IMG/VR virus record: IMGVR_UViG_3300033143_002710
From: a virus
Taxonomy: Duplodnaviria > Heunggongvirae > Uroviricota > Caudoviricetes
Reading direction: 5' to 3' (one strand)
DNA: 64,000 bases
In this document: positions 6,034 through 48,918 of the stretch, in pieces
Layout: every line of letters begins with the position of its first letter
How positions within the stretch are numbered: position 1 is the stretch's first letter
Notes under the pieces: model-generated
Databases searched by the model: none
Seen by the model: the letters and a program-made list of their open reading frames with translations, nothing else
What the model was told of the DNA's origin: nothing
Position numbers and translations under genes: made by a program

Positions 6034-6036
6034 AAT

Positions 6037-6927: not shown

Positions 6928-6944
6928 TTTGATGTCTCATCTAC

Positions 6945-7238: not shown

Positions 7239-7257
7239 ATTTATCCCCTTGTTTTGG

Positions 7258-7331: not shown

Positions 7332-7431
7332 TAAATTTAGCATGTTGGCCTACCAACTCCGGGGTGCGACTCCCGCACAGATCACGCTGTACACGGTTAG
7401 CTTTGCCCAATCGGGCGGCGGCTCTACCTGG

Positions 7432-13148: not shown

Positions 13149-13415
13149 TTACAGATAGCTGGCGTCCCGCAATCGCGAGTTTATTCCGACGGGCAACGAT
13201 GAGAAGAACGCACCCACTTCAGCGACGGTCGTAAACCCATCAATGGACAACTCCTCTATCAGATCATCTTCGCTGTCGCTTACGACTGAAATTTCCAACG
13301 TGGCAGGAAACGGAACAACATTCACGGCTGCTCCGACGGGAATTGCAATATTACTCAGGCCAGATCGAATCTGCGCCCGTGTATATGGGTTAGAAAAATG
13401 CATTAATACTATCAT
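13149..13415 (-). CDS. hypothetical protein downstream of the tail fibre gene (possible fibre assembly factor)
   Basis: 88-aa ORF whose start abuts the J-like gene stop. The function is a guess from position. Confidence 0.4.
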   Translation of the reverse strand: MIVLMHFSNPYTRAQIRSGLSNIAIPVGAAVNVVPFPATLEISVVSDSEDDLIEELSIDGFTTVAEVGAFFSSLPVGINSRLRDASYL

Positions 13416-22131: not shown

Positions 22132-25100
22132 TTATCTCGTTGCTGACTTTAGTCCGTCACGAAAACCGCCTGGTCGACCAGCCGCCTTAAGTACAACATC
22201 AAGAACATAACTCTCTCCGTCAAATTCAATTCCGCCGCTCTCTTCAGCGTCGACAGGAACCCCAGACTCATTTATAACATTCACGGTTACGTCCGGCATT
22301 TGACCGCCCCCGCGTCCGCCGCTTATCGAAACGGGTATACTTCTACCATCAGGCAACGGAACATACGCCTCATTCATATCGCCCTCACCGAATACAGATA
22401 TCTGAGGTTTGGTTGCTATACCCCCTCTAGCATATTGTTTGATGGGGCCGTTTGAAGACATAACCCCTCCAAGAGCAAACATACCAGCAAACGGATTAAA
22501 GCCATCACCGCTTCCGTCAAGACTGCTTGTGTTTATACCTGAATTGGTTGTTCCAGTTGTTCCACCTATCGAAGCCATGACAGCGCGAACAACCAAGGCC
22601 CTCAGAAGAATCTTCAAAAGATCGGAAAGAAGCGACTTTGCAAAATCCTTGAATGCGAATTTTCCTTCCGCTATTCCATCAACAAATGTATCGACGAAGT
22701 TACTCATCCAGTCCGCATAAGACGCCTCCAGTTTACCTCTGGTGTCCTCCCAATCTTTCAACATACGTCGCAAAGGGGTCGTGTCTTCGAACGCCTCCGC
22801 TCTCTTCACACGAAGCTCCTCGTAAAGACGAGTCATCTCCTGTATATTTTCCGCCTGTGCGTTTTCCAAAAGAAACGACTCTACTTGCTGGTCGAACAAT
22901 ATCTGCTCTGCCTTAAATCTGTCTCTGGCATTTTGAATTCCAGCTACATCTAGCTCCTCTATTTCCCTTCTGATTTTCAGTATTTCTTTATCTATACTTG
23001 TAGACGCCTGCACCGAAAGCAACTCGTCTCTCAGGGCAATCATCTTCTCCATTTCATCACTGCCCTCTTCGATACCAATCGCAATACTTGCAAATAGCAT
23101 ACGTATCTTTCGAAGACTACGACCTGGAACCTCACTGAGATTCTTACCAACTGCGTCTGCAAATATAAGGGCCTCTTCTTTTGCCTTTGCCAGAGTTGCT
23201 GTTGCCGATTTCATTGCCGACTCGAACGACTTTTTGGCCTTTACTTCGTCACTCAGTTTGTCAATCTCGAAAAGAAGAGGGATTATTTCTCTCATCGCCT
23301 GCTTCATTTCCTCACTCCATTCGGAAACATTCCCGAAAATCTTACCGGAGTTTACTTTAGCTATGAAGCTTGCCAGCCTTGTGCCTTGCTCTAGCAATTC
23401 GGCATTAAGACTTGCCACTTTCCCTTTTGAGTTGCCGATGATTGTGTTAAGAGATGACGTATAGCCTTCCATCGCCTTTTTCGCTGCGGACATAAGAACT
23501 GTCCCCGACGCTATATGCGCAAGATCATTCGCAACCCTTAGATTTTCAGACCTTGCCACATTTGCAATTTCAATAAGAGCGGCTATCGCCGTTTCCTTTT
23601 TAACTTCCCAGTCCGACCTGTCTTTCTCATTTAGCTCACCTCGCATAGCGAAGTCTGCATTATTGATAATGTCTCTGGCTTCGGACGCCTTTTTTACTGC
23701 AAGCGCGGTCTGAGCAGTCTGAAACTCCTCCCAATTAGCAAGACGCTCCTTGAGTCTTTGTTTTGCGTCTATCTCGCCCTTTTCAAATCTAGTATCGATT
23801 TCAGAATCGTTAGATCGAGCCAGATTTCTAGCCTCTTCGAGACTATCTCTAAACGCCCCCATCATCTCTCTTCTGGCCGCACCCGCTCTTCTTCTTGCAG
23901 CACCTTCGGTTGCGTCAGATATTACCTTTTCTGTTTCGGCTAAATTCTTTTCTAAATTAGCCACCATACCTCTTTGGGCTGCTATCGAGTCCTCGAGTAT
24001 CTTCGCTGTTGATTTCTGACCTGTATCGTTTGCAGCCTTAAGACTGCCGATCATACTATTCAGAATCCTTTTCTGTTCTGCTACTCGTTTTCTACCTACC
24101 ATCACTTCTGTTTTGGCAAGATTAATGCTGGCCTCAGACGCTGCCTCGCCATACTTTCTTACCTGTTCGATACCTGTTTCTGTCGCCTCATTAACCGACT
24201 TCGAAGCTCTCCACCATCCCCAAAGTGCGGCAGCAACAGACAGTATGATGCCGATAATACTTGACAGTCTTAGCGCCTTGAGTGCCTTGCCGACCATTCC
24301 TACGCTACCACCCAGCAATCTCATTGCTGCCGCTGCCTTTGCTGTTTTTCCAAATAGCGGCGCTAGACCCGCCACTGCCAACAATGACAGTGTTCTCGTC
24401 ATCTGCCTCAATACTACGTTGGTTAGCATAAGGGCTTTTAATATTCCCATAGCCTTCCAAGCACCCCAAGCAGCTACGACCTTCCATATCATCTTTGAAT
24501 GTTCACTCAGCCACGTAACCGACTTTCTAATGGCGTCGACCAGAAGCACGAATGCTTTGACCATGCCGCTGGCAATATCAATGCCGAATCGACGAACGGC
24601 TGGATCATCCAACTGCTCGATCAAAAGTTTGACTTCACCCTTGACCGCCTCAAACAACCCACTGGCCTCGCCCATCTCCTTCAACGTCAACTGCCAGACC
24701 GTAGACAGTCGAGCCAGGGAGCCTATGTACGTCTCCATAAGTCTTTGTGATGCGCCACCAAACGTAAGGTCAAACTCTGCGAACAGCTTCTGTAGAGCCG
24801 GTTTTGCTACAACAGCACCCTTTGAAATGGCATCCACCATATCGCCAACGGACATGTTCATACCACGCGCCAGTAGTACCATCGCCTGTGGAACTGCTTC
24901 ACCCATCTGCTGGCGAAGCTCCTCCATGCTTATAACGCCCTTACCAGCCATCTGCTGGACTGCAATGGTCGCTCGATGCAAGATGTCACCAGTACCACCA
25001 AAAGCTGATACAGCGTCAACCAGAGCGTTTAGAGAGCCAGTAGCTGGGTCGACTCCAACAGATTTGAACTTGACCCACGAACTTGTGAGTTCCTTGACTG

Positions 25101-25497
25101 CAAACGGGGCATTCTTGGCCAGGTCAATTACCTGGTTGAATTGGTCCGCCGCGTCAGTCATCTTCTCCATAGCGGTGACGCCCTTGCTCATTCCAGTAAG
25201 CAGAACGTTCAGTCGTTCGAATTCGGCGGTGACATCGACAATGCCCTGAACCAGACCGCCTGACACTCGCCATGCGGTTCTCAGGGCGTCTCGCAAAAGA
25301 CCAAGGGTGACTACGGTGTGTCGAAATGAGGTACTGAGATTGCGAACGTTCTTTTCGTGGCGCTTAACCTTTCTGTCGGCCTTTCCGACCACAGTTGAAA
25401 ACGCTTTTAGAGCTTCTTTTGAACCACGGATTCTGGCCTCGAAATTCTTCGAATCCAGGGTCAGTTCGACCTCTAACTTGGAAATTGTAGTTGCCAC
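22132..25497 (-). CDS. tail tape measure protein
   Basis: 1121 aa, largely coiled-coil/alpha-helical, with internal hydrophobic segments and a C-terminal GGV...YARGGI...PLPDGRSIPV region typical of tape measure proteins. Confidence 0.9.
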   Translation of the reverse strand: MATTISKLEVELTLDSKNFEARIRGSKEALKAFSTVVGKADRKVKRHEKNVRNLSTSFRHTVVTLGLLRDALRTAWRVSGGLVQGIVDVTAEFERLNVLLTGMSKGVTAMEKMTDAADQFNQVIDLAKNAPFAVKELTSSWVKFKSVGVDPATGSLNALVDAVSAFGGTGDILHRATIAVQQMAGKGVISMEELRQQMGEAVPQAMVLLARGMNMSVGDMVDAISKGAVVAKPALQKLFAEFDLTFGGASQRLMETYIGSLARLSTVWQLTLKEMGEASGLFEAVKGEVKLLIEQLDDPAVRRFGIDIASGMVKAFVLLVDAIRKSVTWLSEHSKMIWKVVAAWGAWKAMGILKALMLTNVVLRQMTRTLSLLAVAGLAPLFGKTAKAAAAMRLLGGSVGMVGKALKALRLSSIIGIILSVAAALWGWWRASKSVNEATETGIEQVRKYGEAASEASINLAKTEVMVGRKRVAEQKRILNSMIGSLKAANDTGQKSTAKILEDSIAAQRGMVANLEKNLAETEKVISDATEGAARRRAGAARREMMGAFRDSLEEARNLARSNDSEIDTRFEKGEIDAKQRLKERLANWEEFQTAQTALAVKKASEARDIINNADFAMRGELNEKDRSDWEVKKETAIAALIEIANVARSENLRVANDLAHIASGTVLMSAAKKAMEGYTSSLNTIIGNSKGKVASLNAELLEQGTRLASFIAKVNSGKIFGNVSEWSEEMKQAMREIIPLLFEIDKLSDEVKAKKSFESAMKSATATLAKAKEEALIFADAVGKNLSEVPGRSLRKIRMLFASIAIGIEEGSDEMEKMIALRDELLSVQASTSIDKEILKIRREIEELDVAGIQNARDRFKAEQILFDQQVESFLLENAQAENIQEMTRLYEELRVKRAEAFEDTTPLRRMLKDWEDTRGKLEASYADWMSNFVDTFVDGIAEGKFAFKDFAKSLLSDLLKILLRALVVRAVMASIGGTTGTTNSGINTSSLDGSGDGFNPFAGMFALGGVMSSNGPIKQYARGGIATKPQISVFGEGDMNEAYVPLPDGRSIPVSISGGRGGGQMPDVTVNVINESGVPVDAEESGGIEFDGESYVLDVVLKAAGRPGGFRDGLKSATR

Positions 25498-26302: not shown

Positions 26303-27109
26303 TTACGCTGATGTGTCTCCGACTTGGAACAACAGTCCACCCTGGGTGTCATCAGGATAAGCGTTGAACTCGACATTGTAAATCCGCTCCTCGTCCAGCT
26401 TGAAGCTGAATGTCAAGGCACCGCCAGTTGCAGCCAGTGGAACCGTAAAGTCTTCGTTCAAATCTGCGCCAGCCGAAACTGGATGCAGTTTGAGTGTGGA
26501 CGCCAGAGCCAGGAGATCGGCCGAGATGTTCGTGGTGACATCGACGCGCTTGCTGCCAGAAGCAGAAGGTGTCGTATCGGTAACCGTATCGAATGCACCA
26601 GGGCTGTCCGTTGCTTCGATTGCAATGTAAGACTTTCCTGAAACTCGAGCCGTCAAAATCAGATCGTCGGCGGGTGCTGTTGCGTCCATCGCACGAGCCG
26701 GATCAGCGTTGACCACAGCTAACAGTCCATTGGCCAGATCAGCAGGAACGGTACTTGTCGTCAAAAACTCGTAATCGACGCCATTTACGGTGATTCTGTA
26801 GATGGTCGCGTCGACCGGCAGGGCTTCAACGAAAGTCGTAACCTGCTTGGTTGCGTTATCGATGAATGTGTTGCCCGGCATGATATCCTTGAGAATTTCA
26901 AGGGTCGTCTCAGCCAGTGGACAACGAACCACACACGTTCGAGCGGTAATGTATTCTTTGATTGGAGTGTTGCCGAATTGATCGATCATCGACTTGTACG
27001 TTTCGGTGGCTACTTCAACCTCGACACCGCCCTTGGTGTAACCCAGGTCGACACCGCCGAAAACGATAGTGCAAATGCCGAGCTTGACATTGGTTGTGGA
27101 TGACGACAT
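26303..27109 (-). CDS. major tail protein (gpV-like, with probable C-terminal Ig-like extension)
   Basis: 268 aa in the position of the major tail protein between the U-like and G-like genes. Beta-rich. A stem-loop lies downstream. Confidence 0.7.
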   Translation of the reverse strand: MSSSTTNVKLGICTIVFGGVDLGYTKGGVEVEVATETYKSMIDQFGNTPIKEYITARTCVVRCPLAETTLEILKDIMPGNTFIDNATKQVTTFVEALPVDATIYRITVNGVDYEFLTTSTVPADLANGLLAVVNADPARAMDATAPADDLILTARVSGKSYIAIEATDSPGAFDTVTDTTPSASGSKRVDVTTNISADLLALASTLKLHPVSAGADLNEDFTVPLAATGGALTFSFKLDEERIYNVEFNAYPDDTQGGLLFQVGDTSA

Positions 27110-27125: not shown

Positions 27126-27518
27126 CTAGGTGCAAAAATTGATATCGTAGATAACTAACAACTCAATGTAGTCACCCTCCGACACCGGAAAAACCATCGG
27201 AACTATGCGTGGTCGAATGAAGTTCACTGCAAGGCCACCATATACACCGCTTTCGTTGATCGTGAGGGCGGTCGACATAGCATTTGCGGTGGCTTCACCT
27301 TTCGCATGTTCTGTAGCCCTTACAATAGCATAAAATTCCGTCGAGAAATATCCCGGTAGCTCGTGATCGATGGGAGTTCCCAGCGGTGCGTCCTTCAGTA
27401 AGATGGCTGAATCCACCCTATCTGGCATCTGATACACGAAAATATCCTTCCCAGCACCGGTGTAGTTACCCAATCCGGAGTCTTGTAAATGTTGTGCGAT
27501 GTTCAGTAAGTAACTCAT
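27126..27518 (-). CDS. tail terminator protein (gpU-like by size and position)
   Basis: 130 aa directly upstream of the major tail gene. Confidence 0.55.
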   Translation of the reverse strand: MSYLLNIAQHLQDSGLGNYTGAGKDIFVYQMPDRVDSAILLKDAPLGTPIDHELPGYFSTEFYAIVRATEHAKGEATANAMSTALTINESGVYGGLAVNFIRPRIVPMVFPVSEGDYIELLVIYDINFCT

Positions 27519-27539: not shown

Positions 27540-28052
27540 CTATATAAGACCGCGTTCCATCGCGGACTTGAAAGCCTTCTTGAAACGCCTGTGCCATTTT
27601 ATCTCAAGAGCGTCTATCGTTCTGCCAAAAAATACACCGCCAACATATGTGCCTTGTGGCGATCTTTTGACCCCTAATCCCGCCAGTTTGCGCTTATTTA
27701 CGTACCCTTCTTTTTCCCTTGATCGAGGGCCGATAGCTTCGAAATTACCACTCTCTATCTTCAGGAGATAATCCCTTACGTATCGACCTTGTGCGTCACC
27801 ATTGCTACCCCTTTTCTTCGGCACTTTTTGATCTTCATTTATCCAGATAGTCCAACTATCTGCGCTATTCCTTTTGATTCGAACCGCTCGCTGTAATGTT
27901 CCGCTCTTGTACGGAGTGAGCATCCTCATGACTGCGTGTGTTTCTTCGGCCGCTTCCTTGAGGCGATTTCTCAATGCCAGGTTTGCTCTTTTGCCTCTTT
28001 TCCTTAATTCATCTGAAACTTGATTGGCTGAGAAATTTGCCTTTAGGCCCAT
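27540..28052 (-). CDS. tail completion protein (gpZ-like by size and position)
   Basis: 170-aa basic protein. Order FII-Z-U-V as in lambdoid phages. Confidence 0.5.
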   Translation of the reverse strand: MGLKANFSANQVSDELRKRGKRANLALRNRLKEAAEETHAVMRMLTPYKSGTLQRAVRIKRNSADSWTIWINEDQKVPKKRGSNGDAQGRYVRDYLLKIESGNFEAIGPRSREKEGYVNKRKLAGLGVKRSPQGTYVGGVFFGRTIDALEIKWHRRFKKAFKSAMERGLI

Positions 28053-28384
28053 ATTACTAAATCCACTTCGTCGTGATCGTGTGCGCCTCCCATAACGTGT
28101 CTTGGGTCAATCGCGATGACCCTCAGTGTTTGTCCACTGACTTCTACCTTTGAATTTATCGATGCTATTCCTGGAGCCAGTAATATTCTCGCCTCTGATG
28201 TTCTTTCATTACCCGATCCTCTCGAGGCAGCCGAGTCTGTGCGAACAGACGTTGGGCCGGACTTCAACGAAAGGCTGATGATTGCGCATTTTGTGCTTAT
28301 CGAATCACCAAGTTGTTCGGCCCCATAGACATCGAATCCGATTGTCGGGGTTACTGTGCAAGGAATTCTGGGTCTCATTCTCAT
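28043..28384 (-). CDS. head-tail joining protein (gpFII-like by size and position)
   Basis: 113 aa with synteny to lambdoid head-tail connector genes. Confidence 0.5.
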   Translation of the reverse strand: MRMRPRIPCTVTPTIGFDVYGAEQLGDSISTKCAIISLSLKSGPTSVRTDSAASRGSGNERTSEARILLAPGIASINSKVEVSGQTLRVIAIDPRHVMGGAHDHDEVDLVIWA

Positions 28385-28399: not shown

Positions 28400-29524
28400 C
28401 TAGGCTCCAAATGATCCAAAGACAACTGTTGGGCCGCTGACTGCCACCGTGACTGCTATCCAACCTACGTCCCCGTTGTTTCTATTTTCAACCCCAAGAA
28501 ATAATGATCCTGTTGGGAATCCAACATTGTCATCGAACGTGATTGATGTTCCGTCTGCCGCCACACTCTGAACTGTCATTTCTGTTGCACCGACAAGCGT
28601 CTCTGTTGCGTTGAGATAAACTCTCGGCCATATGAATGAATTACCAGAAGCTGTAAATTTGGTAACTGATGGGCTGCCGTCAGCAGTTTGATCTGCGCCA
28701 CCGCTTGGTCCGATTGCTGCACCACTTGCCTCTACTGGCGTGATGCTCGGTGATCCATCGGCCGTTCTAATTGTCTCCGCTACGCCAGCCGCTTCAACAG
28801 GTGTGATTGAGGGCGAACCATCTGCTGTTTCAATCCTCTCTGCTACACCGGCAGCCTCAACTGGTGTGATACTTGGTGATCCGTTTGCCGAACGCTCTTG
28901 TCTTGCTGTACCGGCAGCTTCAATTGGAGTGATTGAAGGTGAGCCATCTGCTGTTTCAATTCTTTCTGCTACACCGGCCGCTGTAATTGGGGTGATTGAA
29001 GGCGAGCCATTTGCCGTTTGATCTGCTAAAGCTCCAAGGTCAACAATCCACTTGAACGCACCAACTTCTACGCCGCGCTGATTACTTGGATTGCCCGTTG
29101 CGCCGCTTGTTTGTATTAGTGCTATAAGAACCTCTGATCCGTCAGGGTCTGTCAGTAAGTTGGCATTCCACTTACCAGAAATAACTTCGCCGGGATTGAG
29201 AGTGGTAGTTGTTCCTGTCGCAAGAACGGAAACCTGTGTATAGGTAGAGGATATAAGCTCCCAAAGTTCTAGTGACCAACCAGGATCGTTGCCGCCTGAT
29301 GCGGATTTTCTTATCTGTACGCGAAATTCCTGAAGATCAACACCTACTGCTGGATTACTTGTTGGATCAGCTATAAGTGCCCGAACAGTGGTATTACCGG
29401 CACCGTCCCAAACTAGCCAATTGCCGTCTGGAGAATCAGGATCGTCATCAACATCTGCGATACTTGGCGCTGTGTAATTAGTTCCTATTTGTAAGCTAGT
29501 GGCAAGTTTATTTTCAATAGCCAT
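28400..29524 (-). CDS. tandem-repeat virion protein (22-aa repeats TADGSPSITPVEAAGVAERxx) with conserved C-terminal SGPTVVF..GA tail
   Basis: About 6 copies of the 22-aa repeat encoded by 66-bp DNA repeats. The N-terminal ~170 aa are non-repetitive. The C-terminus VAVSGPTVVFGSFGA resembles that of 34733..35647. Confidence 0.7.
   Translation of the reverse strand: MAIENKLATSLQIGTNYTAPSIADVDDDPDSPDGNWLVWDGAGNTTVRALIADPTSNPAVGVDLQEFRVQIRKSASGGNDPGWSLELWELISSTYTQVSVLATGTTTTLNPGEVISGKWNANLLTDPDGSEVLIALIQTSGATGNPSNQRGVEVGAFKWIVDLGALADQTANGSPSITPITAAGVAERIETADGSPSITPIEAAGTARQERSANGSPSITPVEAAGVAERIETADGSPSITPVEAAGVAETIRTADGSPSITPVEASGAAIGPSGGADQTADGSPSVTKFTASGNSFIWPRVYLNATETLVGATEMTVQSVAADGTSITFDDNVGFPTGSLFLGVENRNNGDVGWIAVTVAVSGPTVVFGSFGA
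28740..29021. repeat. 66-bp in-frame tandem repeat array (coding)
   Basis: Seen as repeated protein units and as mirror-image repeated plus-strand ORF 28740..29021. Confidence 0.8.
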
Positions 29525-30723
29525 TACGCGAATCCCGTTCCTGTTATTACGAGGCCAGTGTCTCCATCAGTCCAGGACTCTGTGCCGTTTACATCTGTAA
29601 TTTTAACAGATGTTCTTACACCTTGACCACCTGAGATCACATTGCTGATAGATGGGGAGCCGTCCGCTGTCAACTTTCTTTCAGCAACACCCGTCGCTTC
29701 AACTGGTGATATTTGCGGCGAACCATCTGCCGTTTTTCTTGATGCTGCCGTACCAGCAGACTCAACTGGTGTGGTCGATGGTGACCCGTCTGCTGTTATC
29801 TCTCTCTCTGCTGCACCAGATGATTCGACAGGCGTGATGCTTGGTGAACCATCTGCCGTTAGCTCTCTCTTCGCAGAACCGGTCGATGTTATTGGCGTGA
29901 TGCTTGGTGCGCCATCAGCCGTTATTTCTCTTCCAGCCGTACCCATCGCTTCCACTGGAGTTATGGACGGTGAGCCGTCTGCTGTCAATTCTCTTTCAGC
30001 TACACCCGCTGCTTCCACTGGTGTTGTAGATGGTGAACCGTTTGCTGACTTCTCCTGTCTTGCTGAACCAGAAGATTCTACAGGGGTAATTGAAGGTGAG
30101 CCATTCGCTGTTTGATCCGCAGCACCAGGGTTTAATACCGCCGTACCCGCTGCTTCAACTGGAGTTATGGACGGTGATCCATCAGCCGTCAGTTCTCTTT
30201 CTGCAACTCCGGCAGCCGTTATTTTGGTTGTAGACGGTGAACCGTTTGCAGACCTTTCTTGTCTTGCTGAGCCAGACGATTCTGCCGAAGTTATGCTTGG
30301 CGCACCATCTGCCGTTAATTCTCTCTCAGCGACACCTGATGCTTCAATGGGTGTTATGGACGGCGCACCATCTGCCGTTAGCTCTCTTTCAGCAACTCCA
30401 GCCGCAGTGATCTTGGTTGTGGTTGGTGCGCCGTCTGCCGTCTGCACTCGTTCTGCTGAACCAGATGACTCTACCGGAGTGATACTTGGTGAGCCATTTG
30501 CAGATAGCTCTCTCTCAGCGACACCTGATGCTTCAACGGGGCTTATGCTAGGGGAGCCATTTGCCGAACGCTCTTGTCTTGCTGTACCGGTTGCTGTTAT
30601 AGGGGTTATGCTTGGCGAGCCATTTGCTGTGGGACTCCCTGCTTCGGCAGGTGGCGCACGAAAGCGCCTCCGATAAATCGGAGTAAATGACCCGTCTCTT
30701 CGAAAAACGCCGCCGCTAGCCAT
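29524..30723 (-). CDS. tandem-repeat virion protein (about 15 copies of the same 22-aa repeat)
   Basis: Almost entirely repeats (ELTADGSPSITPVEAAGVAER variants). Its stop overlaps the start of 28400..29524. Confidence 0.7.
   Translation of the reverse strand: MASGGVFRRDGSFTPIYRRRFRAPPAEAGSPTANGSPSITPITATGTARQERSANGSPSISPVEASGVAERELSANGSPSITPVESSGSAERVQTADGAPTTTKITAAGVAERELTADGAPSITPIEASGVAERELTADGAPSITSAESSGSARQERSANGSPSTTKITAAGVAERELTADGSPSITPVEAAGTAVLNPGAADQTANGSPSITPVESSGSARQEKSANGSPSTTPVEAAGVAERELTADGSPSITPVEAMGTAGREITADGAPSITPITSTGSAKRELTADGSPSITPVESSGAAEREITADGSPSTTPVESAGTAASRKTADGSPQISPVEATGVAERKLTADGSPSISNVISGGQGVRTSVKITDVNGTESWTDGDTGLVITGTGFA
29642..30676. repeat. 66-bp in-frame tandem repeat array (coding, about 15 units)
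   Basis: The same repeat family as 28740..29021. The plus-strand ORFs 29642..30115 and 30167..30676 are antisense shadows. Confidence 0.8.
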
Positions 30724-31420
30724 ACATAACGCCCAAACGCCTTGTCACTCTTTTACGCGCACTTGGTTCTTTTATAAATACAGCAATCAACCCTGCTCCA
30801 TCTACTGCCGCATTGTCCCATGTTGCCTGACCACGGGCGGGTTCTTGTCCTGTCAAAACCTTATGCGCGCTTCCCATAAACGTGTCGCCTGTTGGAAGGG
30901 CGGTCGGATCGATATCTTCGATATATGAATTAACCCAAGAGCCGATTGCGTCTCCCTGGTCTATAGGCTCTCCACCCGCTAAAACGATAGCTATAGAATC
31001 TGGCCCAGCGAGACTTTCGGTTTCGCCAGAATCGAATGCTGTTCCAGTCTGTTCGCTAATCATAGCCATTTTGTCTAAAGGATCGGTTTTGAACGGACCC
31101 TCTATATGGTACAAAATACCACACATAGCCGCAGAAGCTGACGTTCGAAATGTTACTAGCTCTTCGTCGCCAGCCGCTATTTTATACCATATATTGTAGA
31201 AGCCTCCCACGCCGTCGTACGCCTCTATAGGAGCCTTTGTCCATATATTTTCACCGTCGTCTTGAGGGACTAGCGACGTTGCCGCTTCAACATGATGACA
31301 TGCTACCAGCAAGTTTCCGGCTATAGCAGTTTGAGATACGTCATTCATATCAACAGCAAATATCGCCGCTGTAGCTACAAACGATTGCGGCGGTGAGGTG
31401 AGTAAATCGCCAAAGGCCAT
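30716..31420 (-). CDS. hypothetical virion-module protein
   Basis: 234-aa ORF in the co-oriented structural block. Confidence 0.55.
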   Translation of the reverse strand: MAFGDLLTSPPQSFVATAAIFAVDMNDVSQTAIAGNLLVACHHVEAATSLVPQDDGENIWTKAPIEAYDGVGGFYNIWYKIAAGDEELVTFRTSASAAMCGILYHIEGPFKTDPLDKMAMISEQTGTAFDSGETESLAGPDSIAIVLAGGEPIDQGDAIGSWVNSYIEDIDPTALPTGDTFMGSAHKVLTGQEPARGQATWDNAAVDGAGLIAVFIKEPSARKRVTRRLGVMYG

Positions 31421-31425
31421 TGTTG

Positions 31426-31878
31426 TTACCCTATTTCTTCGAACTCGATCTCGTAAGCCAATGTTACTGAGGTAACGGCGATTCCAAGATTGATAGCGAA
31501 GAAGTGACCGCCACGAATAATCGGACGCTGCTCTGGAGTCCAGATTTTCTGGTAACCAGCAAGCAGTGAAATGCCTTCGCGCACCAGAAACTCTTCACCC
31601 GTCGAGATGTCGACCGAATGATTGTCTTCGGCTGTACCGGCAAATGCCGCATCACCAAAGTCTTTCTTCTCGACGTTTGCGACAATGTTTGTGCCCGTAC
31701 CAGAAGCTGTATAGCGGCCCATAGTCAATAGGGTGCTATCGTCAGTCTCGCTAGTAGACTGAGATACAGACACCGAGTGAATGACAACTATTCGATTAGC
31801 TACTGCGCCAATCTCAACAATTGTCTTTGGCCCGGTGAACGCGGCTATTGTGTTTGATAAAATATACTTTCTGCCCAT
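31426..31878 (-). CDS. hypothetical virion-module protein
   Basis: 150-aa ORF. Confidence 0.55.
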   Translation of the reverse strand: MGRKYILSNTIAAFTGPKTIVEIGAVANRIVVIHSVSVSQSTSETDDSTLLTMGRYTASGTGTNIVANVEKKDFGDAAFAGTAEDNHSVDISTGEEFLVREGISLLAGYQKIWTPEQRPIIRGGHFFAINLGIAVTSVTLAYEIEFEEIG

Positions 31879-31888
31879 GACGGGACTC

Positions 31889-33121
31889 CTACATAGTTAA
31901 AAGGGTTTTCATTGATCGTCGTCGTTCTTTGATTATGTGGTACGGAAATGCCGATGGTGCTTCGCCAACTACAAGAATCTTTTCATTGTACTTTTGAACT
32001 CCTGCATCGTCATATATATATGCAAAAACAGTGTCGACGCCGCGAATATAGATATGCCCTGATAGCCAGTTGCAAGTGATCGCATCCATTTCTTCGTTAA
32101 GGCTACCCCAAAGAGCGCCATCATTGGTGCTGGACATATAATAAATATCTTGATCGACGCCCTGTGCGCCACCGCCAGAGTAAAGTGCGTGGAGGTTGCC
32201 GTTTTCCTCACCGATTGAATGAACCCCAAAATTACCGTTAGCGAATACCTCTTGCGCGCTTGAAATAAATCTAGCGGCTAATGTTGAAATATCATCGGAC
32301 CCGTCTTCTACTGCTCGAATACTGTTTATCGTATTTATGCTGCCAGCGTTACGAGTATAGGCCCAGCACATGCGCTGAGTTCCAGCGTCCTCGTACGACA
32401 CTGCGTTAGTGATAGTGGTCAACGCTTCAGTGCTGCCAAGATTAATGGCGGCAATCGTTGTACTTAAAACGTCAGATGGATCGAGCGTTCGCGCCTCATA
32501 TTCGATGTACGTTGAGAGCGAGCCACCGCCAGTTGTTTTCGTCCACAATAGGTGCATATCGTCAGTTAGCGGACCCTTGGTGATAACCGGGTTTCCAAAA
32601 TGAATCGCACTTGCGTCATCTATTGCAACTGGGCCTCCCCATGTTCCACCCGTTCGCACGTTAAGGTCGATACGCTCTTTCTGCGCACCATGAACAGTCT
32701 CACTTGCGCCATTGTACGCAACCACAACATCGCCGTCCGAACGAACCGATATAGATATCCACTGATTGAGTGGTAAAAATGTCGTAATTGTTTCGATTAC
32801 TTCATTCGTAATAACCCACGCATCGGTCGCCATGTTGAATGTGTGATAACGATAATTTTGGTTCGCACCTGACACTTCTGCCGTGGCGATATGCAGAACG
32901 TCGCCGTCTTGATATTGACTTACGACATTGGCAATTACGCCGAGAACTGGATTATTTGCCGCGTCCTGGATGGCCCATGATGATGTTGGGTCAGTCGCCT
33001 TGAATACGTCAACCCCCGTTCCATTAATCGATACAGCGTAAAAACTTCCACCGCTTGATTTTCTTGGCGGATAAAACCCACCAACTTGAGCGGTTGATTG
33101 AATTGTAGTTGGCAAAGCCAT
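31889..33121 (-). CDS. hypothetical protein, beta-rich (possible propeller-like fold)
   Basis: 410 aa with repeated G/S/T-rich segments. No catalytic motif recognised. Confidence 0.55.
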   Translation of the reverse strand: MALPTTIQSTAQVGGFYPPRKSSGGSFYAVSINGTGVDVFKATDPTSSWAIQDAANNPVLGVIANVVSQYQDGDVLHIATAEVSGANQNYRYHTFNMATDAWVITNEVIETITTFLPLNQWISISVRSDGDVVVAYNGASETVHGAQKERIDLNVRTGGTWGGPVAIDDASAIHFGNPVITKGPLTDDMHLLWTKTTGGGSLSTYIEYEARTLDPSDVLSTTIAAINLGSTEALTTITNAVSYEDAGTQRMCWAYTRNAGSINTINSIRAVEDGSDDISTLAARFISSAQEVFANGNFGVHSIGEENGNLHALYSGGGAQGVDQDIYYMSSTNDGALWGSLNEEMDAITCNWLSGHIYIRGVDTVFAYIYDDAGVQKYNEKILVVGEAPSAFPYHIIKERRRSMKTLLTM

Positions 33122-33741
33122 TACGGAGCTACCAATTCAAAAGTGCCGGTGGTTATCACACGATGGCCTGTCAACGTCGCCAGGTCTTGTGCTGTTCTGA
33201 ACCCTGACGGTGTGTAAATCCAAAACTTCTTAGCCGTTGATTGATCGAACAAAGTCACCATCGTTAAGATTTCAGCATCTGTCATTCCGTCCGTTACCAT
33301 GTCCTCGGTGCAAATCCACGTAGGAGCGCCGCCCAGAGCCGCCCCAATCGCTTGTCTCGACTCTTGGGTACTCATGTCCTCATTGAGAACCAACTCCTTA
33401 GCCCTGGCCGCTGCGCCTATCTCCACGGAGTCGTCTGAGTCTTTCTCTGCTTGGATATAAACCGATGTGTCGGTTCCTATCGCTGAGCAACCAATTCTGT
33501 TTCGAAGAGCCTTGACACCCCAACCAAATCCAGCGCCTACAATCAACACTCGATCAGAAGCATCTATGGCTGGCGTAATTATAGGAAGAATGCCTTTCCA
33601 ACGGGCAACCATAATTGGTCGCATAAAGTATTCGTGATAGTTTATTCGAACCTCTGGACGAGTATTTGGATGACCACCCATGTGCCTTTCTACACGAAAG
33701 GAATACGATGCGTCAAAGTCTGATTTTGTCCAAGCTGCCAT
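33121..33741 (-). CDS. putative SAM-dependent methyltransferase-like protein
   Basis: Rossmann motif I-like VLIVGAGFGWG, followed by an acidic AIGTDTS motif II-like segment. Weak assignment. Confidence 0.45.
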   Translation of the reverse strand: MAAWTKSDFDASYSFRVERHMGGHPNTRPEVRINYHEYFMRPIMVARWKGILPIITPAIDASDRVLIVGAGFGWGVKALRNRIGCSAIGTDTSVYIQAEKDSDDSVEIGAAARAKELVLNEDMSTQESRQAIGAALGGAPTWICTEDMVTDGMTDAEILTMVTLFDQSTAKKFWIYTPSGFRTAQDLATLTGHRVITTGTFELVAP

Positions 33742-33764
33742 ACTACCCTCTTTCAGAAAATAAA

Positions 33765-33797
33765 AAGGCGCTGGCCCAATTACATGAGCAGCGCCTT
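33765..33797 (-). terminator. rho-independent terminator downstream of 33873..34244
   Basis: AAGGCGCTG-15nt-CAGCGCCTT 9-bp stem, followed on the minus strand by TTTTATTTTCT. Confidence 0.65.
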
Positions 33798-33872
33798 TCG
33801 TGGATTATTATCGGTCTCCACCTACCGCACCCTCAATGGAGTGTGGTAGATAGTGGCGTCAAAATCTCGCTA

Positions 33873-34244
33873 TTAAGCCGGTACGTCTATCGAGAACGTT
33901 GTCAGTTCAACGGTATCCGTCGCCCCAACAATCAGCGAAGACATATTGATGTCTGCGCCTGATGTAGCAACCGTTCCCGTAATCTTGAGAACAGCGCCTG
34001 ATGCAAAAATCTGGAAGGCATCAACTGCGCCAGCATTACCCGTCGCATTGGTGTCCTGAATTGGTTGGCCTGCCATTGTGATAACGCCAACAGCGGCGGA
34101 ACCAAACGCCGGATTCTGGAAGGTAATTGTTGCAACCTCCACCTGTGCGCCAGTCTGGAATTCGAGATAACCCGCCGTTCCAATTTCCGCGTCAATCGCG
34201 TCTGCTGCTGCGTTTCGAACAGCCGTTTCTAAAGTTAGTGCCAT
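33873..34244 (-). CDS. hypothetical virion protein followed by a strong terminator (candidate abundant protein)
   Basis: 123 aa, Ala/Thr/Gly-rich and beta-like. A terminator lies immediately downstream. Confidence 0.55.
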   Translation of the reverse strand: MALTLETAVRNAAADAIDAEIGTAGYLEFQTGAQVEVATITFQNPAFGSAAVGVITMAGQPIQDTNATGNAGAVDAFQIFASGAVLKITGTVATSGADINMSSLIVGATDTVELTTFSIDVPA

Positions 34245-34250
34245 GCCAAA

Positions 34251-34460
34251 TTACTCCTTTGAAGGCTTCGCAGCAGGAGCAGGTTTCTCGAGAACTTCGA
34301 GAACCCGCCCATATGAATTTTGGAACTCAACAAGGGCATCTTTGGCCTTCTTGTAGTTGTTCTTACTTTTGTCGAAGGAGTCGCGAGCCTCGTTAAAGGT
34401 TTCCTTTAACTCGGCCTGTTCTTTCTTCAATCCAACAACCGTAATCTGTCTTTCCGCCAT
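34251..34460 (-). CDS. small coiled-coil protein
   Basis: 69 aa, charged/helical. ATGA overlap with the upstream gene. Confidence 0.45.
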   Translation of the reverse strand: MAERQITVVGLKKEQAELKETFNEARDSFDKSKNNYKKAKDALVEFQNSYGRVLEVLEKPAPAAKPSKE

Positions 34461-34657
34461 TACTTCCTTCCTTCTTCAAATTGGGCCGGGTCAACTCCGG
34501 GGTCGTACTTAATGTCGCCGTTGGCTTTGCGAACTACCGCTGTGCCTCGCAATCTTGCTCCTGGTCTTCCCAAAAGCTCCTTGATATCTTCCGGGTCCAT
34601 AGCTTCCAGTTGTTCCTGCGTGAAAACCCGTCTCAAAACTTTCTGTTGTTCGTCCAT
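34460..34657 (-). CDS. hypothetical small protein
   Basis: 65-aa ORF. Confidence 0.4.
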   Translation of the reverse strand: MDEQQKVLRRVFTQEQLEAMDPEDIKELLGRPGARLRGTAVVRKANGDIKYDPGVDPAQFEEGRK

Positions 34658-34732
34658 CCTGGTCTCCCTTAAACGACTGATTGGCCGCTTACAGAATAAG
34701 CGAGGTGACTATTCACCCCGCTTACTTATATA

Positions 34733-35647
34733 TTACGCTCCTACCGCTACGAATACAACCGTAGGACCAGCAGAATCAACAATCGCATCGATGTCAACCG
34801 ACAAAGCGACTCCGCCAGATTTCGTTCTAAACTCAAGCGCACCATAATTGATGGCGGCTCCGTTTCCACAGGTTATACCTGAAGTCTCGGCAGCAGCAAG
34901 GGTCTTCTCTGCTATACCACCGCCAGATGTCCATGTGAAATCGTTGACCGACTGAACACTGTGGTTGGCCAATGTGACATGCGAGATACCACCTTGGTTT
35001 GTCCATCCTGCCAGAATAGCTAGAGTTAGTAATGTGTCGCCGAATGTCTGGCCAGTATAATCCGCTGCATCAAGAGCGATGTAAGCAGCGCCCGTTAATG
35101 CGTCACGCGCCCAGAAAGAATCTTCGGCATCTGTTTGGTTTGCTCCAGAATCGTCGACTCGAGCCTTGAAATAGTTTTGATCGCCAGGGGCGTCCGACAC
35201 GATTGGTGCCGTTCCTATGGTCTCGATGAACGACCAACCAACCTGGAATGAAATTGCCGTTTGGTTTCCACCGGCCATAAATGGGTCATTTTCGAGAGTT
35301 ACCCTGTCCGTTGAAACCAATGCCAGAATAATATAAAAACCGTCTGTAATTGTTGCGTGTGAAATATACAGAGCGTCACCCGCTGCAAGACCGGTATTTG
35401 AAGCTATGTTTAATTCATCCAACGTATCGTCATATGTCGCCGTTGTACCGGCCAATACGACTGTGGCAGCAGGAGTAAGCGAAGATTTGACTGAGCTTGT
35501 TCCGGGGAATCCAGACGCTTGATCAAGCCAAGCCTCTACTACCGTCGCGACATCGAAACTTGACGCGGCAAATACAAACTGAGCGTTAAGACCGTCGAGA
35601 ATTGGATCAGCGGCAGATGCACCAGCGCCGTTTATTAATAGTGCCAT
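34733..35647 (-). CDS. hypothetical virion protein sharing a C-terminal motif with the repeat protein 28400..29524
   Basis: The C-terminus DSAGPTVVFVAVGA aligns with VSGPTVVFGSFGA. Confidence 0.55.
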   Translation of the reverse strand: MALLINGAGASAADPILDGLNAQFVFAASSFDVATVVEAWLDQASGFPGTSSVKSSLTPAATVVLAGTTATYDDTLDELNIASNTGLAAGDALYISHATITDGFYIILALVSTDRVTLENDPFMAGGNQTAISFQVGWSFIETIGTAPIVSDAPGDQNYFKARVDDSGANQTDAEDSFWARDALTGAAYIALDAADYTGQTFGDTLLTLAILAGWTNQGGISHVTLANHSVQSVNDFTWTSGGGIAEKTLAAAETSGITCGNGAAINYGALEFRTKSGGVALSVDIDAIVDSAGPTVVFVAVGA

Positions 35648-35657
35648 GTTTTATTTC

Positions 35658-35870
35658 CTAGGTCTTCAGTGCCCAAATGCCATCGGAGACTACGTGCCTC
35701 TCCATGAATGCGATACGGCTTATGCCGAGCGCCCGCGCAAAATCATTTGGCCCATCGGCGTCTTCATTTGCCTTGTCCAAAATCTCGTCGATTTGAGGCA
35801 TTGAGAGCGGCGTCCCATTAAGTTTCCTCAGAAACCTTGGCACGTAGTTCAAACTCTTGAAATCGCTCAA
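35658..35870 (-). CDS. hypothetical small protein
   Basis: 70-aa ORF. Confidence 0.4.
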   Translation of the reverse strand: MSDFKSLNYVPRFLRKLNGTPLSMPQIDEILDKANEDADGPNDFARALGISRIAFMERHVVSDGIWALKT

Positions 35871-36033
35871 CCTTTTCTCCTCGCTCTCATGTCGATGAAC
35901 TTATTCATTGATGCAGCACAACGACTGCAAACCGGAACATACGGCTCACCCATGTGTTTCCAGATGTAAAACCGCCTTTCGCAAGAACAGGTCACACGCT
36001 TCAAAAGGCTTACCATATCAGACTCTTAGTTTA

Positions 36034-36381
36034 TCATACAAAAATTTTGACCGCATCAACAATACTCTTCTCAACCTTGAATCTCACAACGTGAGAGGGT
36101 CTGATTAAAGTGCCATTTGCGTCATTTGTGAAAACCTGAACCATGTATTCACCTGGCTCTGTGAAATCGGTAGATTCGATATCAAAATAAACGTGACCGG
36201 TTACGGCGTCCAATACCTTTGCCAGCGGGATCGTTCTTGAAACAATCGAGCCATTTGGTCTGCCAATAACACCTTTGACCTCCCCTTCCTCCAGATTGCT
36301 CATATCGATGCCCGTTTTGATTGAAAACGAGAAACCCGCTTCACCAGGATAAAATACTTCTTCCAATAAAATATGTGCCAT
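36034..36381 (-). CDS. hypothetical protein
   Basis: 115-aa ORF. Confidence 0.5.
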   Translation of the reverse strand: MAHILLEEVFYPGEAGFSFSIKTGIDMSNLEEGEVKGVIGRPNGSIVSRTIPLAKVLDAVTGHVYFDIESTDFTEPGEYMVQVFTNDANGTLIRPSHVVRFKVEKSIVDAVKIFV

Positions 36382-36929
36382 TATGCTGCTCTCTCCGCCC
36401 CGATCACTTCAAGCGTTGGCCTGACTGTGACTGAGTTTGTGTGATATGTATATTGTACTGCAAATCCGTCGATCACTTCTAGCGTCAAGGTGGTTATATC
36501 CTCTCCCCCTAGCGGAACTGCAACAGAACCAAAAATCGTATAGTTACCGGCGATGTCACGAACTCGACCTTCAAGCTCGTAAAACCCATTGATAATGGAC
36601 GCAAGAGGAACCGTTATTCTCCAAACGTCATTTGGTATCCCCGGTGTTTCATCTGGTACAGCGACAGTGGGATAAGACACTCTGAGACTGTCTGAGAGAC
36701 GCTTGAGCGTCATAAAGCCATCTACCCCATCATAGTCTTCAACATAGTCAGAATCCAGCACACCAAGCTCTTCACTGGACTTGATGGTCAGGAGCATATT
36801 GGTAAATGCACCCCTGGGAAACACAACGTCCACGCCGTACCCCACCGTGCCGACGCCAATGGTATTTTGAGACCTAATCGCATTCACGATTTCTGTCTGT
36901 CGAAGTCCGGCCGTTAGGATCTGAGTCAT
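36381..36929 (-). CDS. hypothetical protein
   Basis: 182-aa ORF with ATGA-type overlaps on both sides. Confidence 0.55.
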   Translation of the reverse strand: MTQILTAGLRQTEIVNAIRSQNTIGVGTVGYGVDVVFPRGAFTNMLLTIKSSEELGVLDSDYVEDYDGVDGFMTLKRLSDSLRVSYPTVAVPDETPGIPNDVWRITVPLASIINGFYELEGRVRDIAGNYTIFGSVAVPLGGEDITTLTLEVIDGFAVQYTYHTNSVTVRPTLEVIGAERAA

Positions 36930-39066: not shown

Positions 39067-39975
39067 TTAGGAGCTAAGCAAACCTTCGTACTTGGCGAGC
39101 GACCGCGTAGACTTCAGCACGAGGCCAGAGTACCATTTCAGTCGGACGCGCCATGCATCCTTGTTCTGTACCGTGCCGATGTTCTCGACTCGAATACCGG
39201 CAGACGCTCCACCGAAGATTGCGTGTACGCCGTCTTGCTCGTTCAGGCGAATGGCGTAGATGCCCATGCAATCTGTCTTCGTACCCTTCGTTTCGTCGGC
39301 GTTGACGAAATCGTTCTTCAGAATCGGAATACCGTTATGCGTGAGCATCGGACGGTCGAAGTTCTTCAACTGAAGCATGTTGGCGTCGGTGCCGCCACCA
39401 ACAGTTCGCAGGAGGTTACGATACTGCCGGATCGCAATGCTGTTCATGATGAAAGCGTCTGGGCCGTTAGGCACCTCGTCTTCCAACTCGTCAAGCATGG
39501 ACAGGGTAAGTGCGTCACCGTTCGCGCCAGCACCCGTGAGAGTCTGACCGGCAACTACGAGATTGACAAGACCGTCGAATTCTTTCGGGCTGCCTGTTTC
39601 GTCACCGTTGATGAAAGTGTCGCTCCACTTGCGGCCAAGACCCTTCGCCTTCAACGCGATCTGAATAGCCAACTGCTCATTGGTATCAGACATTGTTTCG
39701 GACAGGAACTTGTCAACATCGACATCGCCAGCCAGAATTTTCAGCGTGGCAACGACGTTCGTGAAGGTGACAGCCTCTTCGGTAACCGCATCATTCGGAT
39801 CGAGGAATGTACCCTGTGACTCCGTGTTCTCGCGGTTGTAGACGTAAGCCTTACCATTCGTCTTCATGAAAGGAATAACCTGGAAGACATCATCGTGAGT
39901 GATGATCTCCTCGATCACGCCGCGCTGTAGATCGTTGTTGGAGAGCTTCTCAGCTTCAACCTTCAATAATGCCAT
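39067..39975 (-). CDS. major capsid protein (HK97-fold, T7-like size)
   Basis: 302 aa between the scaffold gene and a strong terminator. Composition and length are typical of phage major capsid proteins. Confidence 0.75.
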   Translation of the reverse strand: MALLKVEAEKLSNNDLQRGVIEEIITHDDVFQVIPFMKTNGKAYVYNRENTESQGTFLDPNDAVTEEAVTFTNVVATLKILAGDVDVDKFLSETMSDTNEQLAIQIALKAKGLGRKWSDTFINGDETGSPKEFDGLVNLVVAGQTLTGAGANGDALTLSMLDELEDEVPNGPDAFIMNSIAIRQYRNLLRTVGGGTDANMLQLKNFDRPMLTHNGIPILKNDFVNADETKGTKTDCMGIYAIRLNEQDGVHAIFGGASAGIRVENIGTVQNKDAWRVRLKWYSGLVLKSTRSLAKYEGLLSS

Positions 39976-40052: not shown

Positions 40053-40988
40053 TCAGTCGGAACCTAACTTCAACCCCTTTGCTTCTTTGAGTAGGCCGTC
40101 TTTGAGACCGGCAGCAATACGAGAGGCTCCTGGAGCTACACCTGGCGGATCATCATCAGGTCCGCCCAGAGGATCTGTCTTCGACCTTGCTCCCGGCTTA
40201 ACCTTTGATCTGTAAAGGGATTTCTTGTCCGGATCAGCGTCGACAATCTTTTCGAAAGCCGCGTCAAACTCAAGATTTACCCCGGCACCGTCAACCAGTG
40301 GCGCTCGTCCATCGACGCCAGAAGGTTTGTTGTATCCGACAACATTGCCGCTTTCGTCACGCTCAAAATGCGCACCATAAAGTGTTCGCGCTTTCGCCGC
40401 TGGAAGATTTAATCTTTCCTGGATAAACTTCGAGGCACTAAAGGTATTGCCGATACTGAGATTATCAATTTCAGTATCCTTCCCTGCGAGCTTCGCATTC
40501 AGATCCGCAATGATTTCGTCTTTGCCAGTGACAATGACTGCATGTGCTTCGTTCATCTGATCTTTGACCTGAGTAAACTCGCCAGCAGCGATCAGAGCCG
40601 CTTCGTCAGCGTCCTTGTTTTTCTGAAGCATGTCTTTGACCGCAGTCAAATCGATTCCTTCCCATGCTTTGGCCGCTTCTTTCAATGCCGCGACTTCACC
40701 GGACAGAGTGCCGATCTTTTCCTTCTTCTTCATTACTTCTGTGAGAAGGGTTTTTTCCTTGTCGGTAGGCTTTGGATCGGGATCGGGATCGGGGTCTGGA
40801 TCAGGATCGGGGTCTGGATCAGGATCGGGGTCTGGATCAGGATCGGGGTCTGGATCAGGATCGGGATCAGGATCGGGGTCAGGGTCTGGATCGCCATCTG
40901 CACCGACAGATCGGTGAAACCCTGGATTTTCATCATAAAAAGCATTCCAACCATTTACGTCATAATTGTCTAATTCGATACTCATCAT
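40053..40988 (-). CDS. scaffolding protein with (DP)23 dipeptide repeat
   Basis: ATG at 40988 preceded by GAGAGG. 23 consecutive Asp-Pro repeats, then a helical K/E/A-rich region. Lies between the portal and capsid genes. Confidence 0.65.
   Translation of the reverse strand: MMSIELDNYDVNGWNAFYDENPGFHRSVGADGDPDPDPDPDPDPDPDPDPDPDPDPDPDPDPDPDPDPDPDPKPTDKEKTLLTEVMKKKEKIGTLSGEVAALKEAAKAWEGIDLTAVKDMLQKNKDADEAALIAAGEFTQVKDQMNEAHAVIVTGKDEIIADLNAKLAGKDTEIDNLSIGNTFSASKFIQERLNLPAAKARTLYGAHFERDESGNVVGYNKPSGVDGRAPLVDGAGVNLEFDAAFEKIVDADPDKKSLYRSKVKPGARSKTDPLGGPDDDPPGVAPGASRIAAGLKDGLLKEAKGLKLGSD
40750..40905. repeat. GATC-rich 18-bp tandem repeat (GGATCAGGATCGGGGTCT) encoding the (DP)n tract
   Basis: Seen directly. 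About 15 GATC sites within ~150 bp. Confidence 0.85.
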
Positions 40989-41068
40989 ACAGACCTCTCT
41001 CTTGGTCAACTCGGTCCAATCTTGGACCTACTTCTCGTGGTGCTGGAATTCAAACAAAGAGAATTCTC

Positions 41069-48736: not shown

Positions 48737-48918
48737 TGTCGCTCTTTGATTGTTGCTTCGGATTTCCTTATACTATCAGTCTAATACTTTGCAGGCAAAT
48801 ATCTTGAACACCGTAACGATAATCTACAATCCGGTGGCGGCAAAAATAGTTAGCCCCACGCACCAGGTGGACCTTCATATCCAGCACATTCTGTCGTATA
48901 ACGTATCTGGCGCGGATA
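48737..48918. promoter_or_regulatory. divergent intergenic region between the minus-strand block and the plus-strand early module (expected promoters)
   Basis: 182-bp AT-rich spacer separating oppositely oriented gene blocks. Candidate -10 GATAAT/TATACT elements are present, but no confident -35/-10 pair. Confidence 0.4.

Follow-up and report, generated by a model that had tools for sequence, protein, structure and literature searches.

A 21-residue repeat family, a predicted carbohydrate-binding-module-like head and a co-varying C-terminal peptide in putative accessory fibres of an uncultured siphovirus

This study concerns two adjacent genes, A and B, located between positions 28,400 and 30,723 of a 64,000-nucleotide stretch of viral DNA (IMG/VR record IMGVR_UViG_3300033143_002710, Caudoviricetes), hereafter called the window, and a third gene, C, in the same structural region (Table 1). 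We propose, with a probability of about one half, that proteins A and B are modular accessory fibres of the virion and that B is docked through a C-terminal peptide specific to a small gene cassette, cassette 1, to which C belongs. A and B are open reading frames (ORFs) at the positions given by the initial annotation, both on the minus strand, and the three C-termini that it quoted are found in the translations: A ends in VITGTGFA, B in GPTVVFGSFGA, and C in GPTVVFVAVGA. Its description of A and B as largely repeat fits A, about 85% of which is repeat, but not B, where the repeats make up 35% of the length between a 166-aa globular N-terminus and a domain of ~60 aa. A has no head domain of its own. 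The small beta domain that follows the array in B shows strands in its AlphaFold2 (AF2) model, with a pLDDT (predicted local distance difference test) of 60 to 69; such a domain is found internally in P0010, P0013, and P0014, and P0003 has two copies (P-numbers denote compared proteins, and L-numbers denote comparison loci).

The tail shared by B and C is a genuine co-varying element. It comprises 11 to 12 hydrophobic residues and, among the window ORFs of at least 60 aa, is carried only by B and C. Nearly every C locus encodes one other, otherwise unrelated protein whose tail is like the C tail of that locus. The pairs, with the C tail given first, are GPSLVFGAFGA and SPTIVFGGFGA in L009, where the partner is a lectin-like protein of 664 aa with no repeats; GPVMSSALLAA and APIMASALRGA in L010; GPVLTLSLYGA and GPSLFMSAYGA in L016; GPTITHSVVGR and GPTITQSIVGR in L022; GPTLSISVEAR and PPTLSMGVEAR in L023; and GPTVVFVAVGA and GPTVVFGSFGA (B) in the window. 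The partner in L012 is 418 aa long, and such tails were found on unrelated proteins beside C in L009, L010, L012, L016, and L020 to L024, the tail-bearing proteins ranging from 91 to 664 aa. When the last 11 residues of C were compared with the best non-C ORF tail of each locus in 11 related loci, the summed identity was 71, versus 47.3 ± 4.5 when the pairing of loci was shuffled (0 of 100,000 permutations), a figure that overstates independence because the loci are phylogenetically related. In the loci examined, tails of this type (type i, GPTVVFGxFGA in B) occur on neighbour proteins only where C is present, and the repeat proteins of loci without C (L002, L003, L006, and L026) have other endings. 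In the window, the codons of the B and C tails are different at almost all synonymous sites, and their match is thus not explained by a recent gene conversion. In the AF2 monomers, the tails are unpacked on their own domains (the C tail is coil with a pLDDT of 75 to 82, and the B tail has low confidence), such that the tail would be free to bind something. The C-terminus had been suggested to be an anchor shared by a family of all three proteins; the tail's presence on unrelated proteins, its covariation, and its codons support a common functional element for B and C, and A is set apart by a different recurring module of 30 aa.

Based on these results, we suggest that each protein would have up to three parts, namely, an outward head, a repeat stalk, and a short C-terminal address. 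The stalk, a Gly/Ala/Ser/Pro-rich and presumably beta-forming repeat of 21 aa, would be a spacer of adjustable length. The address of B would be its tail, the same element that closes C, a conserved beta protein of the portable four-gene cassette 1. The B and C tails would plug into one acceptor site, probably as an added beta strand, and the acceptor would be encoded by cassette 1 or co-evolve with it, such that any head with a matching tail could be mounted on the particle. A, with its different 30-aa address, may dock elsewhere or to another partner. B itself would be a hybrid, combining a stalk of the type associated with a second gene set (cassette 2, described below), a head resembling a carbohydrate-binding module (CBM), and a cassette 1 address. 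The likely purpose is reversible binding to polysaccharides of the host surface or the surroundings.

Besides the relatedness of the loci, several observations weigh against this proposal. In L013, L019, and L024, the two tails resemble each other only moderately. The repeat region of B is modelled by AF2 as short strands with a pLDDT of only ~55. The three partner genes in cassette 1, which might encode the acceptor, show no homology that points to a function. None of A, B, and C has a cultured relative among the 50,697 phage records searched. Finally, the position of the cassettes varies between phages, such that the attachment site (head, neck, or tail) cannot be inferred from it.

The covariation within loci fits a shared chaperone as well as a shared docking site, and the tail might instead be an assembly tag that acts in nucleation or oligomerisation at the C-terminus or that is recognised by a chaperone of the cassette, such as the 70-aa protein. 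Phage fibres often depend on dedicated chaperones and begin folding at their C-terminus. Of the 14 loci in which C is not cut by the contig end, 8 have the small, helical-looking 70-aa gene directly upstream of C, as does the window. However, 11 hydrophobic residues are very short for an oligomerisation domain, a common folding pathway is not obvious for proteins of unrelated folds and such different sizes (91 to 664 aa), and C is predicted by AF2 to fold confidently as a monomer without using its tail. We regard an assembly tag as unlikely and retain docking as the favoured role of the tail.

The head of B is a confidently predicted beta-sandwich jelly roll that is superposable on known CBMs (e.g., CBM15, CBM22, and CBM32) with a sequence identity of 6 to 12%, and no Pfam CBM family matches B. 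We propose that this domain is CBM-like and may bind glycans. The first ~35 residues of the CBM-type domain form strand 1 and an Asp-rich loop in the AF2 model, a feature that bears on the endings discussed below.

The repeat unit is 21 aa or 63 bp long, as given by both Tandem Repeats Finder (period 63) and protein parsing. A contains 16 units and B contains 6, all in exact 21-aa register save one 26-aa unit per gene, and the last unit is degenerate in both. The initial annotation was right about the tandem repeat and slightly off in its dimensions, about 21 copies of a 22-aa (66-bp) unit, although the unit that it quoted has 21 letters. The repeat is far from anything that chance would produce, and Ala2, Gly4, Pro6, and Gly15 are found without exception in all 22 units. 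The identity between units is 0.66, 0.77, and 0.42 at codon positions 1, 2, and 3, respectively, the mean synonymous difference (pS) is 0.68 versus 0.27 for the nonsynonymous one (pN), and DNA identity between units has a mean of 62% and a maximum of 79%. These figures establish that the units are old copies kept by purifying selection on the protein and not a recent slippage-prone array.

An independent contig from another sample (L004) is 100% identical to the window over 3201 bp, including the entire array, which thus survives comparison with a second assembly without any collapse and is not an assembly artefact. In L005, the sole variant is an in-frame 54-bp deletion near the end of A (compared with window positions 29560-29620), which removes ISNVISGGQGVRTSVKIT, comprising the last, degenerate unit and the first part of the conserved ending, and leaves the frame intact. 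No gain or loss of a whole 63-bp unit was seen among the three assemblies. Within positions 28400-30723, exact direct repeats reach at most 31 bp, in one shared by A and B, and no exact match of at least 20 nt exists at the 63-bp offset. Hence, the idea that slippage changes the length of the array is not upheld on a short time scale. It is true that unit number differs greatly among distant homologues, that AF2 confidence in the repeat is low, and that gene callers missed A in two other assemblies, as might be expected of a contingency locus with slippage-prone expansion, of a disordered linker, or of an assembly error. Yet the exact reproduction of the array in L004, the invariance of four residues despite a third-position identity of only 0.42, the scarcity of exact repeats, and a sole variant that is not unit-sized make such explanations extremely improbable. 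In L004 (949-1983) and L005 (1108-2172), the caller skipped A and reported antisense ORFs of 169 aa and of 157 or 167 aa, which match window positions 29642-30676 on the plus strand. Because A was skipped in two assemblies, genes of this type are probably under-represented or mis-stranded in protein databases.

An exhaustive search with HMMER of 1.84 billion representatives retrieved 305 repeat-family proteins at an E value of ≤1e-3 and 35 at ≤1e-30; the family thus counts at least 305 metagenomic representative clusters. Its members reach 2475 aa and ~35 units, and a comparison between phages, proposed when the repeat was first noted, gave a wide range, from 1 to ~35 units among distant homologues. 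The family consensus is approximately A-S-G-x-P-S-I-x-x-x-T-A-S-G-x-A-x-x-x-x-x, with near-invariant glycines spaced alternately 10 and 11 residues apart. A has no match in Pfam (E ≤ 0.1) or in PHROGs (E ≤ 0.01), and the best phmmer hit among PDB sequences is an unrelated enzyme (E = 0.047), which bears out the initial statement that the repeat has no counterpart that could be named. A Laminin_G_3 match was found in 3 of 50 family members, always in non-repeat parts. Neither megablast of the region, nor tblastn of B and C, nor a search for the repeat in cultured phages gave any match in the 50,697 phage records. The repeat thus defines a new spacer family that is fairly widespread among uncultured phages.

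Homologues of B come from metagenomes only, and throughout the family the repeat is joined to many different N-terminal domains and to a few recurring C-terminal endings. Besides type i, these endings include type ii, RTSVKITDVNTTESWxDGDTGLVITGTGF[VLA], found in A and in at least 16 other proteins (e.g., P0159, P0218, and P0232), type iii, which closes in TDIDEPVxxPDGNWLLxA, and several further types, one of them an acidic helix. The A ending occurs in no other window ORF of at least 60 aa. We rejected the possibility that it is the start of an IPT/TIG domain, as four type ii endings matched no Pfam family, TIG included, at an E value of ≤10, and the possibility that it is the start of a B-type beta domain, as no significant match to a profile of 41 such domains was obtained. 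The 410-aa gene of the window is a separate ORF whose homologues are fused to repeat stalks in P0022, P0164, and P0159; in P0159, the homologue is followed by a 17-unit A-like stalk that ends exactly as A does, an example of the interchangeability of head domains. The 410-aa protein contains an Asp-box-like motif, SSTNDGALW, recognised by eye, and has no Pfam BNR or sialidase match. The 234-aa gene upstream of A was considered as a split head for A, and it has no homologue among the N-terminal heads of repeat proteins at an E value of ≤1e-3. Fusion by frameshift or readthrough was also rejected, since the junctions of the 234-aa gene with A (ATGGCTAG) and of A with B (TAATG) are ordinary stop/start overlaps in which no slippery sequence was seen.

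The type iii ending raises the possibility that the endings are the first strand or strands of a beta sandwich and complete a truncated partner domain in trans, in the manner of donor-strand exchange, thereby chaining fibres or joining them to an adaptor. In L002 (5638-9378) and L028 (1175-5904), the first ~35 residues of the CBM-type domain of B form the end of a repeat protein, closing in the type iii motif, and the next gene encodes the same domain without those residues, starting at the equivalent of approximately residue 44 of B and flanked by repeats. At least six proteins stop at precisely this position. The type i tail follows a VDTxGP motif, which resembles the start of bacterial immunoglobulin (Ig)-like domains. 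On the other hand, L002 and L028 are related phages and effectively a single lineage, no truncated acceptor domain for the A or B ending was found in the window, and the A ending has no significant similarity to the beta domain of B or to any Pfam family. We consider such split-domain assembly rather unlikely. A more general version, equally tentative, is that the cassettes constitute a previously unrecognised portable "plug-and-display" system of tailed phages in which short C-terminal peptides, perhaps first strands split off from beta-sandwich domains, would insert into acceptor domains by strand complementation. If so, sipho-, myo-, and podoviruses could mount and swap arbitrary glycan-binding heads on 21-aa-repeat stalks and leave their core structural genes unchanged.

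Whatever the docking mechanism, the accessory-fibre proposal draws on the genes that travel with A, B, and C, which we compared across 27 fetched loci (Table 1). The C family comprises at least 105 proteins, nearly all of ~304 aa, with a conserved end of the form D-x-x-G-P-(7 hydrophobic or variable residues)-G-[AR]. Cassette 1 loci occur with or without repeat proteins, and cassette 2 occurs without C in L002 (a P22-like podovirus contig, between portal and scaffold), L003, L006, L026, and L028. No match in Pfam or PHROGs was obtained for A, B, C, or the majority of their neighbours, and none to Ig-type Pfam families (I-set, FN3, and Big_2) for A, B, and C; PDB sequence searches found no counterpart, and a homologue search with the 182-aa protein returned unannotated proteins only. 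The 123-aa protein of cassette 2 matches phrog_3758, "virion structural protein" (E = 1.4e-7; residues 3-122 on positions 3-138 of 140), and its homologues lie 5′ of repeat proteins in L002, L003, L006, L011, L026, L027, and L028. The cultured Sphingopyxis phage VSN-002 and Vibrio phage K354 have a phrog_3758-like gene followed by a long protein with repeats of ~20-residue period, judged by eye, and of other sequence. In VSN-002 (L011, MZ127829.1), a P22-like phage, this protein is an unannotated 488-aa ORF (5956-7422), Gly-rich and then repetitive, which fills an apparently empty gap of 1.5 kb after the phrog_3758-like gene. The methyltransferase (MTase)-like gene, of Rossmann type, travels with cassette 2 (58% identity in L003, 8827-9612), and in L026 (3816-5454) a sulfotransferase (PF00685) is encoded beside it; these enzymes hint that a virion protein or a host glycan may be chemically modified.

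Table 1. Features of the window discussed in the text
Feature	Position	Strand	Remarks
Gene A, 399 aa	29524..30723	-	ORF; 31-aa N-terminus, 16 repeat units, conserved 30-aa ending
A repeat array, 16 units of 21 aa (63 bp)	29608..30630	-	Unit 8 is 26 aa; unit 16 degenerate
A ending RTSVKITDVNGTESWTDGDTGLVITGTGFA, type ii C-terminal module	29527..29616	-	Recurs in at least 16 other repeat-family proteins
Gene B, 374 aa	28400..29524	-	CBM-like head, 6 repeats, small beta domain, tail
B N-terminal domain, aa 1-166	29027..29524	-	Predicted beta-sandwich jelly roll, CBM-like
B repeat array, 6 units	28625..29017	-	Unit 5 is 26 aa; unit 6 degenerate
B small beta domain (RVYLNATETLVGATEM...GWIAVTVAV), ~60 aa	28439..28624	-	Conserved in P0002-P0010
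B tail SGPTVVFGSFGA, type i, hydrophobic	28403..28438	-	Unpacked, low confidence in AF2 model
Gene C, 304 aa	34733..35647	-	All-beta, length-conserved family; cassette 1
C tail AGPTVVFVAVGA	34736..34771	-	Alignment; within-locus covariation; coil in AF2 model
70-aa gene, cassette 1	35658-35870	-	With C in 8/14 loci
115-aa gene, cassette 1	36034-36381	-	With C in 7/14 loci
182-aa gene, cassette 1	36381-36929	-	With C in 14/14 loci
65-aa gene, cassette 2	34460-34657	-	Accompanies repeat proteins elsewhere
123-aa phrog_3758-like gene, cassette 2	33873-34244	-	Accompanies repeat proteins elsewhere
MTase-like gene, cassette 2	33121-33741	-	Accompanies repeat proteins elsewhere
410-aa gene, cassette 2	31889-33121	-	Homologues fused to repeats
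69-aa gene, cassette 2 block	34251-34460	-	No homologues found outside this phage
150-aa gene, cassette 2 block	31426-31878	-	No homologues found outside this phage
234-aa gene, cassette 2 block	30716-31420	-	No homologues found outside this phage
Large terminase	42670-43914	-	
Portal	41069-42619	-	
Scaffold	40053-41009	-	
Major capsid protein	39067-39975	-	
phrog_916 and phrog_912 genes	Structural block	-	
phrog_911 gene	28043-28384	-	
Tail terminator	27126-27518	-	PF12691
Major tail protein	26303-27109	-	
Tape measure	22132-25497	-	
2462-aa tail protein	13415-20803	-	

In the window, L009, and L012, cassette 1 is placed between head and tail genes; in the P2-like prophage L025, it directly follows a tail fibre gene and a DUF4376 chaperone; and in the "Candidatus Reddybacter" genome (L010), it follows a J-like gene at a prophage end. 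With such variation, and with cassette 2 next to the portal in L002, the neck or whisker location first suggested for these proteins has no specific support. The positions in L025 and L010, together with a match of the 115-aa neighbour to BppU_N (PF10651) that stays below the Pfam cut-off (E = 0.024; 14.8 versus 23.1 bits), could point to A and B being primary tail fibres or receptor-binding proteins essential for adsorption. This appears very doubtful, since the window already holds a full distal-tail gene set, the 2462-aa tail protein included, and since relatives with the same capsid and tail lack A/B-type genes (L001) or carry different heads (L009 and L012), which suggests a dispensable, exchangeable accessory. 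Moreover, the variable N-terminus and conserved C-terminus of A and B reverse the polarity of typical tail fibres.

The source of the window is an uncultured siphovirus of ~107 kb, an identical copy of gene B being on record on a 107.6-kb contig. Its structural genes, from terminase through tail proteins, are on the minus strand, and A and B lie within this operon, with capsid genes on one side and the phrog_911, tail terminator, and major tail genes on the other. The major capsid protein shares 58% identity with its counterpart in Stenotrophomonas phage BUCTxx99 and 51 to 55% with those in SSU5- and nickie-like phages (~100 to 110 kb). In BUCTxx99, the capsid and tail terminator genes are only ~3 kb apart; the window has ~9 kb of extra genes in this interval (28400-36929), A, B, and C included, which are absent from BUCTxx99. 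Gene orientation and GC skew both flip at window positions ~48736-48750 (minus to the left, plus to the right), marking where transcription diverges between the structural block and the remaining genes. The scaffold gene contains a (GGATCG)n or 18-bp tandem repeat (40774-40893), which encodes ~22 Asp-Pro dipeptides near the N-terminus. The gene of the 2462-aa tail protein contains a 306-bp tandem duplication (15102-15670, 86% identical), so that a segment of ~100 aa is present twice, and several 9-bp micro-repeats (15372, 15962, and 16567). C-family genes occur in prophages of the Porticoccaceae group, namely, L010 (GCA_041276885.1) and P0142 (a Porticoccaceae metagenome-assembled genome). These prophages of marine Gammaproteobacteria are the sole clue to the host range of the cassettes, and marine Gammaproteobacteria are the likely hosts.

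Several known systems resemble parts of the proposed arrangement, and literature searches on CBM-bearing capsid fibres and on donor-strand docking in phages turned up no system like this one. T4 Hoc and the CBM- or Ig-containing decoration proteins are likewise dispensable-looking accessories with outward N-terminal binders, an extended multi-module body, and proposed weak glycan binding. The C-terminal part of Hoc is its attachment end. A and B have no sequence or family relation to Hoc, their stalk consists of 21-aa repeats instead of Ig domains, and the proposed 11-residue anchor of B is shared with other proteins. The CBM proteins of lactococcal and streptococcal siphophages (the neck passage structure, BppA, and evolved Dit and Tal) are also exchangeable CBM accessories on structural proteins, and in the BppU-BppL system of TP901-1 and Tuc2009 an adaptor holds several binders, which recalls the faint BppU_N signal of the 115-aa gene. 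In these siphophages, however, docking is by N-terminal domains, whereas it would be by a C-terminal peptide here; in addition, the BppU_N match is below the Pfam threshold, and the hosts here are likely marine Gammaproteobacteria. By analogy, the dockerin-cohesin pairs of cellulosomes illustrate how many unrelated catalytic or binding modules may share a short C-terminal address for a common scaffold, with co-evolving type-specific pairs, but dockerins bind calcium and are ~70 aa long, compared with addresses of 11 to 30 residues here. The donor-strand complementation of chaperone-usher pili, in which a terminal strand completes an incomplete beta sandwich, would be comparable only if the split-domain explanation were right; here, the donor would be C-terminal and supply the first strand, and only one lineage shows the split clearly. 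Finally, the BACON tandem repeat protein of crAssphage (PMC6949934) shares a location in the structural region, a suspected carbohydrate role, and a copy number that varies by lineage. It differs in that BACON is Pfam-defined, much longer than 21 aa, and itself the putative binder, whereas here the unit would be the spacer and the head the binder.

Exchangeable particle decorations are known in phages, and the rules of their attachment are known for few model systems. Our results add an undescribed repeat family, with hundreds of metagenomic clusters that gene callers often miss or mis-strand, a possible split domain completed in trans, and a testable attachment code in the form of a tail of 11 residues in which unrelated proteins of a given phage vary together. 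If this code holds, it would provide a minimal tag for the display of foreign domains on phage particles and would explain how uncultured marine phages swap their adhesins.

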